Below are positions 6,296-56,664 of a stretch of DNA of 64,000 bases, piece after piece. The stretch is from the NCBI GenBank assembly GCA_035547095.1, contig DASZVE010000015.1, positions 17,306-81,305 on the forward strand. Reading direction: 5' to 3'. The stretch comes from Mucilaginibacter sp. (GTDB lineage: Bacteria > Bacteroidota > Bacteroidia > Sphingobacteriales > Sphingobacteriaceae). Numbering within the stretch: the stretch's first letter is position 1; the number at the start of each line of letters is the position of its first letter. The position numbers and the translations under genes are program-made. Below the pieces are notes generated by a model. It worked only from the letters and a program-made list of their open reading frames with translations. It was not told the DNA's origin and did no database searches.

Positions 6296-6618
6296 AAGAA
6301 GATAATAATAAAGTCTCCCCTTCCGGGGGAGATTTAGAGGGGGCCAGGGGCATTCGCATCACACCGCTCAATTTCGCAACAGCTTTTTTCCTGTTCCTGG
6401 CGGTATACATTTCGATTTACGGTGTCCAGGTTATAGGCGCGCACTACCCCTATGCGCTCAAAAGCTGGATGTTTACCGCCATATTTGTGCTTTTTGCTAT
6501 TGCCGTGTCATTTATGGACCTTATCCTGCGCAATTTTTTCCGCCAGACTAAAAAACTGTGGATAGTGGAGCTAAGCTTTATAACTTTGGCGATTATTTTA
6601 TTTTTACTTGCGAGATAA
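6292..6618 (+). CDS. Hypothetical small membrane protein (start uncertain)
   Basis: The ATG overlaps the helicase stop (ATGA). The first about 20 codons are the 36-nt GC-rich repeat, and three hydrophobic spans follow. Confidence 0.3.
   Translation: MKEDNNKVSPSGGDLEGARGIRITPLNFATAFFLFLAVYISIYGVQVIGAHYPYALKSWMFTAIFVLFAIAVSFMDLILRNFFRQTKKLWIVELSFITLAIILFLLAR
6310..6345 (+). repeat. 36-nt GC-rich hairpin plus mirror-purine-tail element (family C)
   Basis: The sequence reads aaag tctcccc ttccg ggggaga ttt agagggg gcc. The stem pairs 6314-6320 with 6326-6332. The mirror repeat is gggggaga-ttt-agaggggg. Confidence 0.85.
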
Positions 6619-45600: not shown

Positions 45601-46126
45601 AGCCATAATAAGTATTTTGTACATCCAGGTAGCCGACATTACCGCTGAATTTGGTTGTTTGAGGAAAATATTGGGCGGCGGTGCCGTTCAAAATTATCTT
45701 TGCGGTAGAGCTTGATGGGAATTTAAGCGTTCCGCTGCTAAAATTGCCCGCTAAGGTAAGCACACCGGTATTGCTTATGCTAAATGTGGTGGTACTGGCC
45801 ATTGATATATTGCCCGGCACTGTGAGCGAGCCATTAAGCGTTAACGTGGCAGTTTTGCTCGTGCCGAAAGTGATGGATGCCGCATACGCTGTTTCCGACG
45901 ACGATATGGTTGGCTGGTTTGTAAACGAAGTGCTGCCGATGCTTACCGCATCGTTTATTGTCGGCACCCCCGACGGCGACCAGTTGCTGGCTGTATTCCA
46001 GTCGGTGCTGGACGAGCCCTTCCAGACATAGGTACTCGCATATGCATTATTTAACGAAAATGCTGTTACTACAACAATAATAATTGCCCGCAAAAAACCC
46101 TTGAATAAAGTGAATGCTGTTTTCAT
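42632..46126 (-). CDS. Large secreted repeat protein with a T9SS C-terminal sorting domain
   Basis: Has a signal peptide and T/S/N/G-rich beta-strand repeats. The C-terminus is YPNPAASVINLKI...LQPGTYIVQVID...VTSFVKN (Por secretion tail pattern). Confidence 0.85.
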   Translation of the reverse strand: MKTAFTLFKGFLRAIIIVVVTAFSLNNAYASTYVWKGSSSTDWNTASNWSPSGVPTINDAVSIGSTSFTNQPTISSSETAYAASITFGTSKTATLTLNGSLTVPGNISMASTTTFSISNTGVLTLAGNFSSGTLKFPSSSTAKIILNGTAAQYFPQTTKFSGNVGYLDVQNTYYGSSTDKGVELLNQASGSYVTINYLYVEPNAIFNANATLVEGTNYHATIGANALYISRSTFNFHDNDVIDPTATLEFTATNQVINLVKPNASGTNLPPNVIFTGANITVNGGTSPDNTTVFDVLGNFGVLNTTNSVTFDSQLTEIDIGNNFIGNGAMYSGSLPINIAGSWLNTANYNVGGVVTYDGNNASDSTQVVSTSVNYQNNVVFTGATPKQVASGTMNVAGNLDNSAGTNVDFVTNSSTLLMDGSGTQYIKGGTAGNNYYPSNVVTGTIFNNVTISTSGSGANTVLQGNNNISPLGVLTVNNPALLDASASNSLTLLSDATGSATFATLSSGASISGTINVQRFVKGSYPTDVSRRGYRLMSSTVYTGTAGSNKVFDLSWLANSAIITGPSGGGFFSVGNPSTYIYREDIIPSDVNFTTGDFKGIAKINNSPVYNIGTQKRLTLTNVNDTTVTIPVGNGVLFFFRGNKTTPNGSTSGTKTSLPYNYPEDVTFTNTGTLNTGTVNVKLWYRQDNYLGYTNSPSLANSAVRGYCLVGNPYAATINWEKFNRNSTVANSSIYGGGGLTSTIYMFNPTNKQYEAYMQKTGTIVSADTISNINPGTAVGSASNMIASGQGFFIRASSTSQTLSFRETAKTTTQPSASQLNILMGKPKATPSGDEPLVRIRLSKDSINTDEIVVRLNDSASNCYKITEDAGDMGGISPAVSLSAMASDSIKLCIDRLPFPAKTPQVIPLLVDGTATGQYQLKLTQLSNLQPTYGVWLRDRTKPDSINLRTNPVYSFTINKADTTTFGGKRFQLVISKDPVPALQLLSFNANKITEGSLLIWKTKNESDYTAFYIERSTDNGIKFNPIGSMQSDGTGRYAFVDRSPAHGQNQYRLKLDDINNNITYSNIASLNYSRHENILATLITAYPNPAASVINLKITRDPNPAPYDIRIVNSSGLLVRQELTQQSTWQTNITNLQPGTYIVQVIDNLNKSVVGVTSFVKN

Positions 46127-53921: not shown

Positions 53922-53922
53922 T

Positions 53923-53958
53923 GGCCCCCTCTAAATCTCCCCTGGAAGGGGAGACTTT
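53923..53958 (-). repeat. Family-C 36-nt element (sense on the his mRNA strand)
   Basis: Its reverse complement is aaagtctccccttccaggggagatttagagggggcc, 1 mismatch from the copy at 6310-6345. Confidence 0.85.
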
Positions 53959-53989
53959 TGATTTTGTTTATGTTTCAACCTCACTTTAA

Positions 53990-54027
53990 GCCCTTCCGCC
54001 AACTGGCGGAGAGGGTTGGGGTGGGGC
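53990..54027. repeat. GC-rich hairpin with a G-rich tail (family D), ending at the hisG stop
   Basis: The sequence reads gcccttccgcc aact ggcggagagg gttggggtgggg. The architecture is as at 565-600. Confidence 0.7.
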
Positions 54028-54879
54028 TTATAAAATTATCTTTTCTATCGGCATCACCACAATACCCTGCGCGCCGGCTTGCTTTAACTGGCTGATCCTG
54101 TCCCAAAAATCGCGTTCCGGGATAACGGTATGCACCGCAACCCAGCCTTCCTCGGCCAATGGCACTACCGACGGACTTTTAACCCCCGGCAGCAGCCTGG
54201 TTATCTCAGGCAGACGGACTTTCTCAACATTTAACACTACATATTTGGTCTCGGCTGCCCGGAGAACCGACTGCACCCTTTGGATCAGTTCTTTAATTAG
54301 CTCTTCGTTTTCACTGCCTCTGCGGCCGATTAGCACCGCTTCCGACGACATCACATCTGCAAAGGGCTTCAATCCGTTGCTTTTGAGTGTTCCGCCGGTA
54401 GATACCAGGTCGCAAATAGCATCGGCAAGACCCAAACCCGGCGATATTTCTACCGAACCCGATATGGTGCGGATGTCGGCCTCGATGTTTTTCGACCTTA
54501 GAAATTTCCCCAATATGACCGGGTACGTAGTGGCGATGGATTTACCGTGCAGCTCCGACAGGTCTTTAGGGTGCTCGGTGTTGGGTACCGCAATTTTCAG
54601 CGAGCAGCGGCCGAAACCCAACTTTTGCAGGTAGCTGACATTAACCTCGGTTTCCTGGATCACGTTTTCGCCTACTATGCCCAGGTCGGCGATGCCATCC
54701 TGTACATATTCGGGGATATCGTCATCACGCAGGAACAATATTTCGAGCGGGAAATTGGAAACGGGGGAGATAAGCGAGCTTTTGTAATTCTCGAAATTTA
54801 AGCCGCAATTTTTCAGTAATTCAACTGATTTTTCGTTGAGCCTGCCAGATTTCTGGATGGCTATTTTGAGTGTTTTCAC
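54028..54879 (-). CDS. hisG: ATP phosphoribosyltransferase (long form)
   Basis: 283 aa. Contains KIAIQKSGRL, DLVSTGGTL and a C-terminal regulatory domain. The start codon is GTG. Confidence 0.9.
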   Translation of the reverse strand: MKTLKIAIQKSGRLNEKSVELLKNCGLNFENYKSSLISPVSNFPLEILFLRDDDIPEYVQDGIADLGIVGENVIQETEVNVSYLQKLGFGRCSLKIAVPNTEHPKDLSELHGKSIATTYPVILGKFLRSKNIEADIRTISGSVEISPGLGLADAICDLVSTGGTLKSNGLKPFADVMSSEAVLIGRRGSENEELIKELIQRVQSVLRAAETKYVVLNVEKVRLPEITRLLPGVKSPSVVPLAEEGWVAVHTVIPERDFWDRISQLKQAGAQGIVVMPIEKIIL

Positions 54880-55038
54880 TTGTATTTTTTAAACTATTAA
54901 ATGGAACGGTTGGGGTTATTTCACGTAGAAACAATACATTATCTTATCGCCTGGTGGCGATGGTGCAGATGAAGATGATGTAGCCTGTAACCGTTCATTT
55001 TTTTTATAGTTAACTATGGACGAAGTGCCGCAAATATA
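54880..55038 (-). promoter_or_regulatory. his operon control region: candidate -7 box, leader ORF and leader RNA structures
   Basis: TATATTTG lies on the minus strand (55031-55038). The 12-bp palindrome atagttaactat is at 55006-55017. The hairpin AUCGCC-ACCA-GGCGAU lies within the His codons. The 8-bp long-range pair is GAACGGUU (54989-54996) / AACCGUUC (54904-54911). Confidence 0.55.
54939..54998 (-). CDS. his operon leader peptide, 19 aa: MNGYRLHHLHLHHRHQAIR
   Basis: Hand translation of the minus strand gives ATG AAC GGT TAC AGG CTA CAT CAT CTT CAT CTG CAC CAT CGC CAC CAG GCG ATA AGA TAA. That is 6 His in 9 consecutive codons. The stop lies 59 nt upstream of hisG. Confidence 0.65.
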   Translation of the reverse strand: MNGYRLHHLHLHHRHQAIR

Positions 55039-55133
55039 AAGTTTATTTAACAAAAGCAAGTGTTAAGTTTAAATTATGTAATGAGCGGTCGATTTTATTG
55101 AGAGTTTGATATAGACATGACGAGGCCAGCCCC

Positions 55134-55168
55134 AAAGTCCTCCCTACCGGGGAGGATTTAGGAGGGGC
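55134..55168 (+). repeat. Family-C element, covarying copy
   Basis: The sequence reads aaag tcctccc taccg gggagga ttt aggaggg gc. The stem and the mirror tail are both changed coherently relative to the copy at 6310. Confidence 0.85.
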
Positions 55169-56664
55169 TCACTCAAATAAACTTTCCCTTCCTTTGCTCC
55201 GCCGATCTCTTTTAGTTGCCGATGTGCCGCGATATCCTTCAGGCTGATGAGCTCCTTGTTATATAAGGAGTCGAACCAGATTACATAAAATTTCTTTTGC
55301 TGGTAGAATTTGTCTACGTCCTTATGAAAGTACCTGTGCGGTACCAACTGCGAGTTGAGCCCTGTACACAGCCACACCGCTTCGTTTGCATCTGAATAGA
55401 TGGGCACGTTTGGCTTAAACATATCTTTATGCTGCTTCAGGTAGGGCGCAAACTCCGATTTGTTCCAACTATCGTCGCTATAGCCGGGCACGCCGTAGTC
55501 GTTCTCATCGTACCAGCGCTGGTAATCCACCAACACGGTCGAATATTCAAAAAGCAGCATGGCAACAATACCAATTCCGGCCACCACGTATTTCCAGGTT
55601 TTTGAATGTACACTCTTCGAGACATCCGGCACCCAACTGGTACACGAAATAAGCAATGGGATAAACATAGGCGACAACAGCCGGCTGTTAATTTGTTCGT
55701 ACCTCGAAATACTGGCCGATATGATAATGAACAGCCCGTAAACTACCGCAAAAGCAATCACAACATTTTCATAGCTGTTAATGCGCCGCTTCCAGGTTTT
55801 CCATACCAGTACACCGATTAATGCAAGCATAATAACGGATGTTACCAATACCGCATAGCTGTCGGCTTTGTTGCTTAGAGCGCCCCAATCATTTATTACC
55901 GTGCCGACATAAAAGAGGTTTTTTGCAAATGGTGTTATTGATGGCTCACGGGTGCCGGTACTTAACCCGGTCGCCACGCTGTTATAAACCAGGTTGATTA
56001 CCAGCAATGAAATAGAGATCGAACCGTAAATGAGTTCATGGACGATCTTTTTACGGAAAGATATTTCGTTCTCAAGTAATATTAACAAGCAGCCGGTACC
56101 AACAATAGTAACTCCCGCATAACGTGTAATGCAGCTTATGGCAGTTATCAACGCAACTATAACTAGTGATTTAATACTATAAGTATGCGTGTATTTCCAA
56201 AAGGCGATAATAAAGAACAATATCTCCAGTATAAATAAGGTTTCGGACCAGAGGTAAGTATAAATCTCTAGAAGAGCGGGACTGATAATAATAGCGATCA
56301 GTATAAGCCACTTATATATTCGTGAATGCGAAAGGAATCTTTCGATAATCCAGCCGCTGGTAAAAACCACCGAAGCGAACAGGAAGCGGTTGATCATTGC
56401 GCCGGCTTCAACCGGGTTCACCCTCGAAATGAAGTCGATTATGCCGAGGAAAAACGGATAAAATATTGGGAAGAAGGTGATCGGAGTACCCGTAAAGGTA
56501 ATAAAATTGCCGTGCGCCTTAAAGTGCTCTGCCGCGCTGGCGTACATCAGCGAATCGGGCGAAAGGCCCACGCCACTATAGGACGTAAATAAGTATATAG
56601 CGTAAAAGCCTATACAGGCAAAGATGAATGAATCGAGGTTGGTCAGGTAGCGGTTAAGCTTCAT
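55144..56664 (-). CDS. Polytopic membrane protein, GT-C/ArnT-like glycosyltransferase candidate
   Basis: 506 aa. About 11 TM segments are followed by a soluble C-terminal domain. The last codons are derived from the family-C repeat. Confidence 0.4.
   Translation of the reverse strand: MKLNRYLTNLDSFIFACIGFYAIYLFTSYSGVGLSPDSLMYASAAEHFKAHGNFITFTGTPITFFPIFYPFFLGIIDFISRVNPVEAGAMINRFLFASVVFTSGWIIERFLSHSRIYKWLILIAIIISPALLEIYTYLWSETLFILEILFFIIAFWKYTHTYSIKSLVIVALITAISCITRYAGVTIVGTGCLLILLENEISFRKKIVHELIYGSISISLLVINLVYNSVATGLSTGTREPSITPFAKNLFYVGTVINDWGALSNKADSYAVLVTSVIMLALIGVLVWKTWKRRINSYENVVIAFAVVYGLFIIISASISRYEQINSRLLSPMFIPLLISCTSWVPDVSKSVHSKTWKYVVAGIGIVAMLLFEYSTVLVDYQRWYDENDYGVPGYSDDSWNKSEFAPYLKQHKDMFKPNVPIYSDANEAVWLCTGLNSQLVPHRYFHKDVDKFYQQKKFYVIWFDSLYNKELISLKDIAAHRQLKEIGGAKEGKVYLSEPLLNPPR

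Follow-up and report, generated by a model that had tools for sequence, protein, structure and literature searches.

Introduction

Leader-peptide attenuation is a textbook form of gene control, but nearly all characterised cases come from Proteobacteria, Actinobacteria and some Firmicutes. The Bacteroidota lack Shine-Dalgarno sequences, and to our knowledge the tightness of transcription-translation coupling in this phylum is poorly known. In the pyrBI attenuator of E. coli, the leader ORF extends across the terminator hairpin, which cannot form while the translating ribosome sits on one of its strands; what is sensed is the coupling of UTP-sensitive polymerase pausing to the ribosome. In the enterobacterial hisL leader, a short ORF with a run of His codons lies directly before hisG and ribosome stalling selects between folds (summarised in PMC9413887). 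The closest described system in the same phylum is the hisG leader of Flavobacterium psychrophilum, which is annotated as a leader-peptide attenuation element with transcriptome support (Guerin 2021, PMC9723704, Table S7). A short 5' transcript of 129 nt, THC0290_N_0824, is reported for this leader, and hisG expression is maximal in minimal medium (PMC9723704). The Bacteroid-trp leader (RF01692), a cis-regulatory leader of Bacteroidetes, has also been read as leader-peptide control (Weinberg 2010, PMC2864571).

Here we analyse the region upstream of hisG in a 64,000-nucleotide stretch of DNA from Mucilaginibacter sp., hereafter the window. A preliminary description of this stretch had proposed a His-rich leader peptide and ribosome-mediated attenuation of a Bacteroidota his operon. 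Comparison with related loci supports attenuation as the probable mode of control. A His leader before hisG is in itself not new to the Bacteroidota, as one was already annotated in F. psychrophilum (PMC9723704). From the conservation of sequence and pairing we infer a regulatory function for the leader. The element very probably senses histidine through translation of the leader. As a whole we read it as a histidyl-tRNA-sensing leader-peptide attenuator of the his operon, most likely with a split terminator that is occluded by the ribosome, and our confidence in this full reading is about even.

Results and Discussion

The his operon and its leader ORF

The operon is of the hisGDCBHAF type with hisG as the first gene, and NCBIfam models confirm hisG, hisD, hisC, hisB and hisH. 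The features at its 5' end are as follows.

54028-54879, minus strand: hisG (ATP phosphoribosyltransferase, long form), GTG start, gene 1 of the operon
54939-54998, minus strand: leader ORF of 19 codons plus TAA, MNGYRLHHLHLHHRHQAIR, read directly from the sequence
54954-54980, minus strand: run of six His codons in nine positions, candidate stall site and also 5' arm of helix P2
54999-55005, minus strand: A-run, Shine-Dalgarno-less initiation region of the leader ORF, from sequence and alignments
55031-55038, minus strand: putative promoter -7 box of the Bacteroidota type TAnnTTTG, TATATTTG, from sequence and alignment

The leader reads ATG (54998-54996), AAC, GGT, TAC, AGG, CTA, CAT, CAT, CTT, CAT, CTG, CAC and then CAT, CGC, CAC, CAG, GCG, ATA, AGA, TAA (54941-54939). 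Between its stop and the GTG of hisG at 54879 there are 59 nt. The preliminary description had given the ORF at 54998-54939 with six His codons in nine positions, the 59-nt distance, an A-tract before the leader ATG and an exact TAnnTTTG box (TATATTTG, 55038-55031), and all of these are found in the sequence, the A-tract at 55005-54999. The consensus of the box, TATATTTGCA, is kept at the equivalent position in an alignment of 73 loci. The start site mapped for hisG in F. psychrophilum suggests by analogy that transcription begins about 6 nt past the box, near 55025. The sequence AAAAATG is almost invariant at the leader start in both alignments (A1 and A2), and initiation in Bacteroidetes is favoured by adenines at -3 and -6 (Baez 2019, PMC6847099). 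The initiation context of hisG is weak: among the loci listed, the start is GTG or TTG in 78/81 and an A is found at -3 in only 19/81.

The leader ORF exceeds chance. A scan of the window for ATG mini-ORFs of 8-40 codons on both strands gives 930 candidates, and this one alone has at least four His in nine codons; shuffled windows yield 0.05 ORFs with at least five His. The codon scan also returned a Thr-rich mini-ORF (40606-40541) and a Trp-rich one (45784-45825), which were rejected as leaders as both lie inside long ORFs. A second mini-ORF starting from a UAAUG overlap was likewise discarded; its frame is not conserved, and it is read as a by-product of pairing with CAU codons.

The gene upstream of the leader encodes a putative glycosyltransferase, and no regulator gene is seen adjoining the leader. 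No gene of the Trp_repressor family (HisR) was found next to hisG in the window, and neither a local permissive scan nor a scan of the whole window gave an Rfam match to a histidine T-box upstream of hisG. HisR-type genes were seen only where the HisG is a more distant relative (35-53% identical); these loci are probably from Firmicutes, since HisR was described in that phylum.

Conservation in the Sphingobacteriaceae

A genome scan gave at least 539 hisG loci, 80 of which are listed here; 78 Sphingobacteriaceae loci with enough upstream sequence are the base of the leader-ORF counts. Other lineages were reached via representatives at 50% identity, about half of which are HisR-type, Firmicutes-like loci, and a hisG protein search aimed at other Bacteroidota classes gave only Mucilaginibacter among the matches listed. 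A His-rich mini-ORF upstream of hisG in relatives was the check proposed in the preliminary description, and an ORF with at least four His is found at the equivalent site in 74/78 of the loci listed, starting 107-134 nt upstream of hisG. There are 63 distinct peptides, and the pattern L-H-H-x-H-x-H-H is conserved. The first His is codon 7 in 61/78 and the length is 19-20 codons in 59/78 of the loci listed. In the C-terminal part the reading frame differs between clades while the underlying RNA hairpin is kept, which points to selection on the His codons and the RNA and not on the peptide sequence.

These data bear on the idea that the ORF encodes a functional His-rich micropeptide, for example a metal-binding one, or arose by chance without a regulatory role. 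His-rich peptides can bind metals, and five 20-residue orthologous peptides have no match in Pfam or NCBIfam, so that homology leaves room for such a function. However, conservation is limited to the His codons and the RNA pairing, the C-terminal half changes frame, the site upstream of hisG is fixed in the same 74/78 listed loci, and the chance expectation is 0.05 per window. We regard this explanation as scarcely credible.

A predicted three-way junction around the leader ORF

The 156-nt leader RNA has a predicted folding energy of -30.3 kcal/mol, which corresponds to z = -3.4 when compared with dinucleotide shuffles. In the predicted fold a three-way junction of helices P1, P2 and P3 surrounds the ORF, with P1 in two parts.

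55006-55011, minus strand: P1b 5' strand, AACTAT, MFE fold, just 5' of the leader A-run
54989-54996, minus strand: P1a 5' strand, GAACGGTT, from the G of the leader ATG through codons 2-3 to the first base of codon 4
54935-54982, minus strand: P2, outer stem and apical stem, MFE fold
54916-54934, minus strand: P3 hairpin, TTGTTTC-TACGT-GAAATAA, core GTTTC (54932-54928) / GAAAT (54922-54918)
54904-54911, minus strand: P1a 3' strand, AACCGTTC, MFE fold and alignments
54892-54897, minus strand: P1b 3' strand, ATAGTT, 13-18 nt upstream of the hisG GTG
54891-54903, minus strand: U/A-rich tract, CATTTAATAGTTT, immediately behind the P1a 3' strand, where transcription may end prematurely

In the outer stem of P2, the first His codons (TACAT.CATCTT, 54982-54972) are bound to the region of the stop codon (AAGAT.AATGTA, 54945-54935). 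Its apical stem, ATCGCC (54961-54956) with GGCGAT (54951-54946), is paired in 90-95% with swaps between A-U and G-C. P3 is the leader element most conserved in sequence and is paired in 94-98%; its GTTTC...GAAA is invariant in 40/40 Mucilaginibacter, and its closing pair changes from C-G to G-C in Pelobium-like loci. In P1a all 8/8 pairs vary on both sides in the cross-genus alignment, and the complementary sequences of P1b are clade-specific. A change of GAACGGUU to GAAGCGUU would disrupt P1a.

An all-clade MAFFT alignment is too gappy and RNAalifold recovered only P3 from it; clade-wise and model-based alignments were used in its place. In Mucilaginibacter, 89% of the cells are paired, compared with 30-56% with slid partners. 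In the cross-genus alignment, which was fitted to the model structure and is biased towards it, 84% of the cells are paired against 35-50% in the control, 25/30 pairs vary on both sides, and the covariation score is 0.31 against 0.03-0.08, a value reached by 0/500 shuffles. The P1 duplex is found in nearly all loci listed with a mean z of -2.6. Native P1 5' and 3' strands are 3.6 kcal/mol more stable than swaps between divergent loci (p = 3e-12). The hairpin within the His codons (54961-54956/54951-54946) and the 8-bp long-range helix (54996-54989/54911-54904) followed by CATTTAATAGTTT, both proposed in the preliminary description, are present and are kept by compensatory changes; covariation of the leader helices, which it had suggested as a check, extends to all helices.

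Counted from hisG, the P1 3' strand of the window occupies -33 to -12, and that of relatives -45 to -6. At one locus (L068) the entire element is about 100 nt further from hisG, with the P1a 3' strand moved along, so the closing helix travels with the leader and is not tied to the start of hisG.

Leader codons 3-6 and the P3 5' arm are rivals for the P3 3' arm in the Pedobacter, Pelobium, Daejeonella and Parapedobacter clades. The pairing of codons 3-6 with the P3 3' arm is 2.4 kcal/mol more stable in native than in swapped combinations (p = 2e-5). In these clades the predicted competition matches the mutually exclusive pairing that is expected of an attenuator. No such competing pairing was found in core Mucilaginibacter, the window included, and in the model direct masking of the P1a 5' strand would be the sole route available there.

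The strong conservation of P3 may suggest that the RNA is a binding site for a protein or a small RNA, with translation of the mini-ORF being incidental. The sequence conservation of P3 is far above the need of a plain hairpin, and the core Mucilaginibacter model does not account for its role, as the competing codon pairing is absent there. This has to be weighed against the in-frame ATG, the unbroken ORF and the His run, which are retained despite indels in 74/78 of the loci listed, and against the conserved, strong A-rich initiation context. Furthermore, the neighbouring putative glycosyltransferase gene leaves no adjacent regulator, and the Rfam families give no match. We regard a binding site with incidental translation as very unlikely.

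Termination signals

No canonical terminator of stem and U-tract was found in 54500-55500, and none in the window leader or the 80 listed Sphingobacteriaceae loci, although canonical terminators occur elsewhere in the window. The failure of the preliminary description to find such a terminator thus holds also across the family. The His leaders of three other, Bacteroidota-like lineages and of F. psychrophilum end with a canonical terminator, and termination is probably the ancestral read-out because of these leaders. In the Sphingobacteriaceae loci listed, the closing helix is directly followed by a U-rich 9-mer (at least six U in nine) in 33/70 loci and, at a laxer cut-off, in 50/70; the swap controls give 12% and 27%, respectively. 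The tract of the window is below the criterion of at least six U in nine and is weak in the window lineage, with the U-run of its sublineage being degraded to CAUUUAAUAGUUU. In Pelobium-like loci UUUU follows P3 in both states. The lack of a canonical hairpin, the degraded tract of the window and this UUUU all count against the attenuator model proposed below.

Two further candidates were discarded. An AU-only hairpin in core Mucilaginibacter (UAUAAU-UUUU-AUUAUA) was considered as the terminator with P1 as antiterminator; the weakness of its stem speaks against it, as do the regulatory sign, which would be the wrong one, and its deletion in the window lineage. The homology of the segment CCCGTTT with the 5' arm of the Flavobacterium terminator is not claimed, as the post-ORF alignment has a z of only 0.6.

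Proposed mechanism

The steps up to the closed junction are read from the sequence or deduced directly from it, and the later ones make up the proposed mechanism. Transcription would start about 6 nt past the TATATTTG box. The A-rich 5' end would bring ribosomes to the 19-codon ORF, which has its six His codons among codons 7-15. Free of ribosomes, the leader RNA would adopt the closed three-way junction, in which P2 joins the His codons to the region of the stop codon and P3 forms a small, conserved hairpin. The closing helix P1 joins the leader start region to the stretch just before hisG. P1b lies upstream of the AUG, and P1a runs from the G of this AUG through codons 2-3 into codon 4, of which it takes in the first base.

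With ample His-tRNA, the ribosome would read through the leader and depart at the UAA. P2 and P3 would refold, and P1a would close while RNA polymerase transcribes the U/A-rich tract. The closed junction may then act as a split, non-canonical intrinsic terminator that leaves hisG untranscribed. When His-tRNA is low, the ribosome would stall with His codon 7 or 8 in its A site, with a footprint that extends back to the start codon and covers the P1a 5' strand; upon stalling at a later His codon, a trailing ribosome would cover this strand instead. The junction would be kept open and the polymerase would proceed into hisGDCBHAF. Premature termination by the closing helix has, in our judgement, roughly an even chance of being the actual read-out. 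A stem enclosing about 90 nt of nested hairpins is unusual for a terminator and may close too slowly, which speaks against a termination read-out. In constrained folding, P1b stays paired with a single stalled ribosome. Thermodynamic folding shows no antiterminator in Flavobacterium-type leaders either, so such predictions are of limited power here.

The same sensor could have a translational read-out, in which the closed junction hinders 30S loading at hisG and opening of P1 relieves it. The 3' strand of the junction ends 12-20 nt upstream of the hisG start, and in Bacteroidetes the stretch from -20 to +20 has to be poor in structure for initiation (Baez 2019, PMC6847099). The weak start context of hisG described above and the poor U-tract in the window lineage agree with this, and non-terminating leader-peptide attenuators that sequester the start are predicted elsewhere (PMC9413887). 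But the region from -10 to +13 has a predicted unpaired probability of 0.68 in all states, with or without a stalled ribosome, which counts against sequestration of the start site. The region from -30 to -10 changes only from 0.42 to 0.57 and requires an added trailing ribosome, and the hisG start codon itself never pairs with the leader. The closing helix at L068 is more than 100 nt from hisG, and terminators are used by the related leaders of other lineages. A translational read-out is unlikely. Pairing of the leader codons (GUUUUCAC) or the P3 5' arm with the hisG start (GUGAAAAC) was rejected as a general mechanism: visual inspection shows complementarity in the Pedobacter clade, but the start of hisG does not vary and so cannot covary, and in Mucilaginibacter the complementarity is missing and the predicted start accessibility is unchanged.

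Alternatively, this sensor may be coupled to Rho-dependent termination (polarity) on the untranslated, C-rich spacer and the poorly initiated hisG start. Rho would act once the ribosome is off at the UAA, and a stalled ribosome or open leader would prevent this indirectly. The absence of a canonical intrinsic terminator, the weak hisG start context and a C-rich, G-poor stretch that Mucilaginibacter conserves between P3 and P1a (AAUAACAACCCCC) would fit, as does the finding that many 3' ends of F. psychrophilum are unmatched to predicted intrinsic terminators (PMC9723704). The C-rich stretch is, however, just about 12 nt long and missing from the Pedobacter, Pelobium and Daejeonella clades, and a ribosome stalled at the His codons would not cover a loading site downstream of P3. 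We consider Rho-dependent termination quite unlikely.

Returning to the split, ribosome-occluded terminator, we tentatively propose, with less than even confidence, that in the Sphingobacteriaceae a 'split' platform has taken the place of the canonical terminator found in the Bacteroidota His leader, in which direct occlusion would make an antiterminator unnecessary. The 5' strand of the decisive helix would be the leader start codon and the first codons, and a His-tRNA-sensing ribosome parked exactly one footprint past the AUG would decide the outcome, either non-canonical intrinsic termination or control of the weak, Shine-Dalgarno-less hisG start.

The element has no family in Rfam, Pfam or NCBIfam, and its description fills this annotation gap; the his operons of Mucilaginibacter, Pedobacter and their relatives are now annotated without their regulator. 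With about 130 nt it would also be a compact system for testing ribosome-controlled termination against translational control in Bacteroidota.

Comparison with known systems

A cmscan of 54600-55300 gives no match to the His_leader family RF00514 at E <= 10, and no Rfam family matches at its gathering threshold in the whole window. A weak match to mtPerm-5S at 55037-55135, which scores 23 bits (E = 0.13) where the gathering score is 39, is due to chance. Of the marks of an attenuator, the window has a short ORF rich in the amino acid of the pathway directly before the first biosynthetic gene, and its codon run is kept in relatives while the remaining peptide drifts; a GC-rich hairpin with a U-run was not found before hisG in the window.

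The leader shares the TAnnTTTG-type promoter with that of F. psychrophilum, a member of the same phylum. Both have a 19-codon ORF with Leu6-His7-His8, the codons CAG GCG at 16-17 and a TAA followed by TG, and both fold into a long hairpin that has the His codons as its 5' arm and covers the stop codon. The window thus carries what defines the Flavobacteriaceae type, namely an ORF of 19-20 codons with Leu-His-His at codons 6-8 and a TAnnTTTG promoter upstream of hisG. The similarity between the two is significant in the ORF (z = 5.4) and not significant after it (z = 0.6). In contrast to the Sphingobacteriaceae, the F. psychrophilum leader has its own canonical terminator (CCCGTTTGA-GTACA-TCAAACGGG), lacks a P3-like GTTTC/GAAAC hairpin, and its start-codon region does not pair downstream. 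The covariance model built on the Sphingobacteriaceae (R1) does not detect the Flavobacterium-like locus L091.

Enterobacterial hisL (RF00514) is alike in the short His-run ORF directly upstream of hisG, the ribosome-stalling logic and the first His at codons 7-8. It differs in its seven consecutive His, which are interspersed here (HHLHLHHRH), and in its row of hairpins A:B, C:D and E:F in place of the closed three-way junction predicted here; the present leader has neither a GC-rich terminator nor a Shine-Dalgarno sequence at the translation start. Bacteroid-trp (RF01692) is likewise a cis-leader of an amino-acid biosynthesis operon in Bacteroidetes, with another amino acid sensed and another sequence. 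The proposed occlusion of a strand by the ribosome, with no separate antiterminator helix, is similar to that of pyrBI, while here the occluded strand would be at the start of the ORF and the signal would be stalling at His codons. The his leader thus belongs to an established kind of switch, of which it represents a new structural variant. If its read-out is ordinary, it is simply another member of the classical family; if the split platform is true, it would be a new architecture of leader-peptide attenuation and a natural means to study how transcription and translation are coupled in a phylum that lacks Shine-Dalgarno sequences.

A His-rich leader ORF upstream of hisG

A short His-rich ORF precedes hisG on the minus strand of the window, and read on that strand it agrees in all details with the preliminary description:

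54998-54939, minus strand: leader ORF of 19 codons, MNGYRLHHLHLHHRHQAIR
54980-54954, minus strand: six His codons within nine positions
55038-55031, minus strand: exact TAnnTTTG box, TATATTTG

The claimed A-rich tract is present as an A-run directly 5' of the leader ATG, and the stop lies, as described, 59 nt ahead of the hisG GTG (54879). The ORF is more than a chance occurrence, since it is the only one among 930 ATG mini-ORFs of the window with at least four His in nine codons, and shuffled windows contain 0.05 ORFs with at least five His.

The his operon and its flanks

The genes 3' of the leader were assigned by NCBIfam as hisG, hisD, hisC, hisB and hisH. They are followed by four co-directional ORFs reaching about 46400, which are presumably hisA, hisF and hisIE. 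The HisG of the window is 95% identical to that of two 'Bacteroidetes bacterium' MAGs and at most 92-93% identical to Mucilaginibacter proteins, which assigns the window to a Mucilaginibacter-like member of Sphingobacteriaceae.

Two GC-rich hairpins are found in the 106-nt hisG-hisD spacer (53922-54027). One of them is a perfect palindrome, CTCCCC-N5-GGGGAG, at 53937-53953 and again at 6315-6331 (two matches in the window vs 0.04 expected), a candidate REP-like repeat or element for processing or stability within the operon. A nested GC-rich hairpin, AGCCCC...CCTCCCCGGTAGGGAGG...GGGGCT (55120-55170, minus strand), without a U-run, follows directly on the stop codon of the putative glycosyltransferase gene upstream and lies between that gene and the his promoter. 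It may be a terminator or 3' stabiliser of this gene.

Conservation in Sphingobacteriaceae

One scan of species-representative genomes gave at least 539 hisG loci. The best 80 (HisG identity 74-95%) cover Mucilaginibacter, Pedobacter, Pelobium, Daejeonella, Parapedobacter, Pseudopedobacter, Albibacterium and related MAGs. Taking the window with the 77 loci for which an upstream mini-ORF is listed, 74 of 78 keep a mini-ORF with at least four His, starting 107-134 nt 5' of hisG. The leader peptides are diverse (63 distinct sequences), while the length is 19-20 codons in 59/78 loci and His first occurs at codon 7 in 61/78. The ATG in A-rich context, the pattern L-H-H-x-H-x-H-H and the stop are kept. 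The C-termini vary (..HRHQAIR, ..HHHHVVIR, ..HRHCGDR) because translation passes through one RNA hairpin in different frames. Such a pattern typifies a regulatory leader rather than a peptide with a function of its own.

Some lineages have lost the leader or let it decay. A Pedobacter MAG (L080) is without it, and degenerate leaders with only 2-3 His remain in L051, L065 and L067. In Parapedobacter deserti (L068, 1768-1898) a weakened 3-His ORF is separated from hisG by about 100 extra nt.

Structure of the leader RNA

The 156-nt leader folds at -30.3 kcal/mol (z = -3.4 vs shuffles), and the free RNA is predicted as a three-way junction in all clades examined:

P1a: 8-bp helix GAACGGUU x AACCGUUC, its 5' strand running from the G of AUG through codons 2-3 to the first base of codon 4
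P1b: AACUAU just 5' of the A-run x AUAGUU 13-18 nt before hisG
P2: His codons x stop-codon region, with hairpin ATCGCC/GGCGAT as its tip
P3, 54916-54934: small hairpin GTTTC-TACGT-GAAAT, the leader segment with the highest sequence conservation

Both pairings proposed earlier are recovered here, the short hairpin within the His codons as the P2 tip and the long-range helix as P1a. In Mucilaginibacter 89% of cells are paired vs 30-56% with displaced (slid) partners, and the apical P2 pair changes from A-U to G-C in 10 sequences. A covariance model trained on Mucilaginibacter only has one match in the window and matches most other Sphingobacteriaceae genera (E 2e-7 to 0.3). In the model-based cross-genus alignment 84% of cells pair vs 35-50% slid, changes on both sides occur in 25/30 pairs, and the covariation score is 0.31 vs 0.03-0.08, with the observed values reached by none of 500 shuffles. 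As this alignment is fitted to the structure, two alignment-independent tests were added. The P1 duplex has a mean z of -2.6 vs shuffles (70 non-redundant loci), and pairs of native 5' and 3' strands exceed swaps between divergent loci in stability by 3.6 kcal/mol (p = 3e-12). By eye, P1b is clade-specific yet complementary: ACUAUA/UAUAGU in Mucilaginibacter, AAUCAG/CUGAUU in the Pedobacter group, AAAAGACA/UGUCUUUU in Pelobium and GGCCAAA/UUUGGUC in Daejeonella. The his-attenuator interpretation is thus supported by the conserved His ORFs together with a covariation-backed structure.

GTTTC and GAAA of P3 are invariant in 40 Mucilaginibacter sequences with a mostly UACGY loop, a conservation well beyond pairing needs. 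The leader stop overlaps, as UAAUG, the AUG of a second mini-ORF through P3 (ATG TAT TGT TTC TAC GTG AAA TAA; 54939-54916, minus strand), whose frame and length vary between clades. This AUG is imposed by pairing with a CAU His codon; the second mini-ORF is probably a by-product.

Proposed switch

In clades other than core Mucilaginibacter, the loop-proximal part of P3 and its 3' arm have leader codons 3-6 as pairing partner, so that the P3 5' arm is a mimic of these codons. In leaders with 'VFTH' peptides GUUUUCAC pairs with GUGAAAC, and in Pelobium UUUGAC pairs with GUCAAAA. This pairing and P3 itself are predicted to be mutually exclusive. The closing pair changes from C-G to G-C in the codons and both P3 arms together, and native codon/P3 pairs surpass swapped ones in stability by 2.4 kcal/mol (p = 2e-5). 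In core Mucilaginibacter, to which the window belongs, the codon/P3 competition was looked for and is absent; the early codons pair instead with the segment just 3' of P3, forming P1a. No competing partner for P3 was found in this group, where P3 may act in pausing, protein binding or a tertiary contact. In both arrangements, as a shared principle, the junction-closing helix would take one of its strands from the start codon and the five or six codons at the beginning of the leader.

A ribosome covers 12-15 nt 5' of its P site. Given this footprint and a first His at codon 7, a ribosome awaiting His-tRNA would extend back to about the start codon and would therefore cover exactly the 5' strand of the closing helix.

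Read-out of the closed state

The element is very probably a His-tRNA sensor. For its read-out, we give about even chances to premature termination by the closing helix. Termination is favoured by a U-rich 9-mer directly after this helix in 33/70 loci at <= -7 kcal/mol (swap controls 12%), or 50/70 at a laxer <= -5 kcal/mol (27%). It is also favoured by the canonical terminators that end other His leaders (Flavobacterium psychrophilum, Flavobacterium-like L091, L082/83 with its TATATTTG promoter, L087), and by L068, whose entire element has remained with the leader at a distance of about 100 nt from hisG. Against termination, no GC-rich local hairpin is present, the closing-helix 'loop' is about 90 nt, the sublineage of the window lacks the U-run with only CAUUUAAUAGUUU left, and simple folding leaves P1b paired with only one ribosome stalled. 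As the preliminary description noted, no canonical GC-rich stem plus U-tract terminator was found in the leader region; the window holds 14 elsewhere vs 6.4 in shuffles.

Judged against published initiation contexts (Baez 2019, PMC6847099), that of hisG, the first gene of the operon, is conspicuously weak and Shine-Dalgarno-less, and that of the leader ORF near-ideal. Over 81 loci (window, 54877-54879, and L001-L080) hisG starts with TTG in 41, GTG in 37 and ATG in only 3, and A at -3 occurs in 19. Such a context would allow translational or Rho-linked effects. Translational control is an unlikely read-out: hisG -10 to +13 has a predicted accessibility of 0.68 with or without a stalled ribosome, and for -30 to -10 the value goes up from 0.42 to no more than 0.57, which argues against sequestration of the start site. 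Rho-dependent termination, for which the weak initiation context gives room, is considered slightly less probable still.

Comparison with known leaders

The element has no match in Rfam (His_leader, Bacteroid-trp, T-box), and the leader peptide has none in Pfam and NCBIfam. Our literature search found no description of a His leader for Sphingobacteriaceae, and no leader is mentioned in a review on the his genes of Bacteroidota.

Different His leaders (MRRFMHNHHHCTASRVVAVKMVM, MYRISHHHHHHCHAAERPE, MTYNQLHHHLSGFSSGGSMM), each followed by a canonical GC-rich hairpin and U-run, and a 31-codon ORF ending HHHHSFHHSH (L088) are found in distant HisG relatives (35-53% identity):

L082/L083, 1000-1200: distant-relative His leader
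L087, 455-610: distant-relative His leader
L091, 300-450: distant-relative His leader
L088, 712-810: distant-relative 31-codon ORF

Their antiterminators are not obvious, because simple folding gives the terminator in all ribosome states. In L084, L085, L086, L089 and L090 (HisG 45-50% identity) a Trp_repressor-family gene lies immediately 5' of hisG, matching the HisR repressor arrangement of Firmicutes (PMC9413887).

Among published elements, the hisG leader of F. psychrophilum comes closest, with a 19-codon ORF MSLNQLHHHHFHICSQAKC, a 129-nt 5' transcript and a canonical terminator; according to its authors, it is conserved in Flavobacteriaceae and absent from Rfam (PMC9723704). A His leader in Bacteroidota was therefore already known, and what is new is its extension to Sphingobacteriaceae. 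The leader ORFs of both groups align significantly (z = 5.4), whereas the alignment of the region after the ORF is not significant. Also new is the covariation-supported long-range helix on the leader's own start region, which appears to replace the terminator hairpin. The Sphingobacteriaceae element, whose regulation is predicted from sequence, is of the same classical kind of switch as the enterobacterial hisL attenuator, a known kind of regulator with a different structure.
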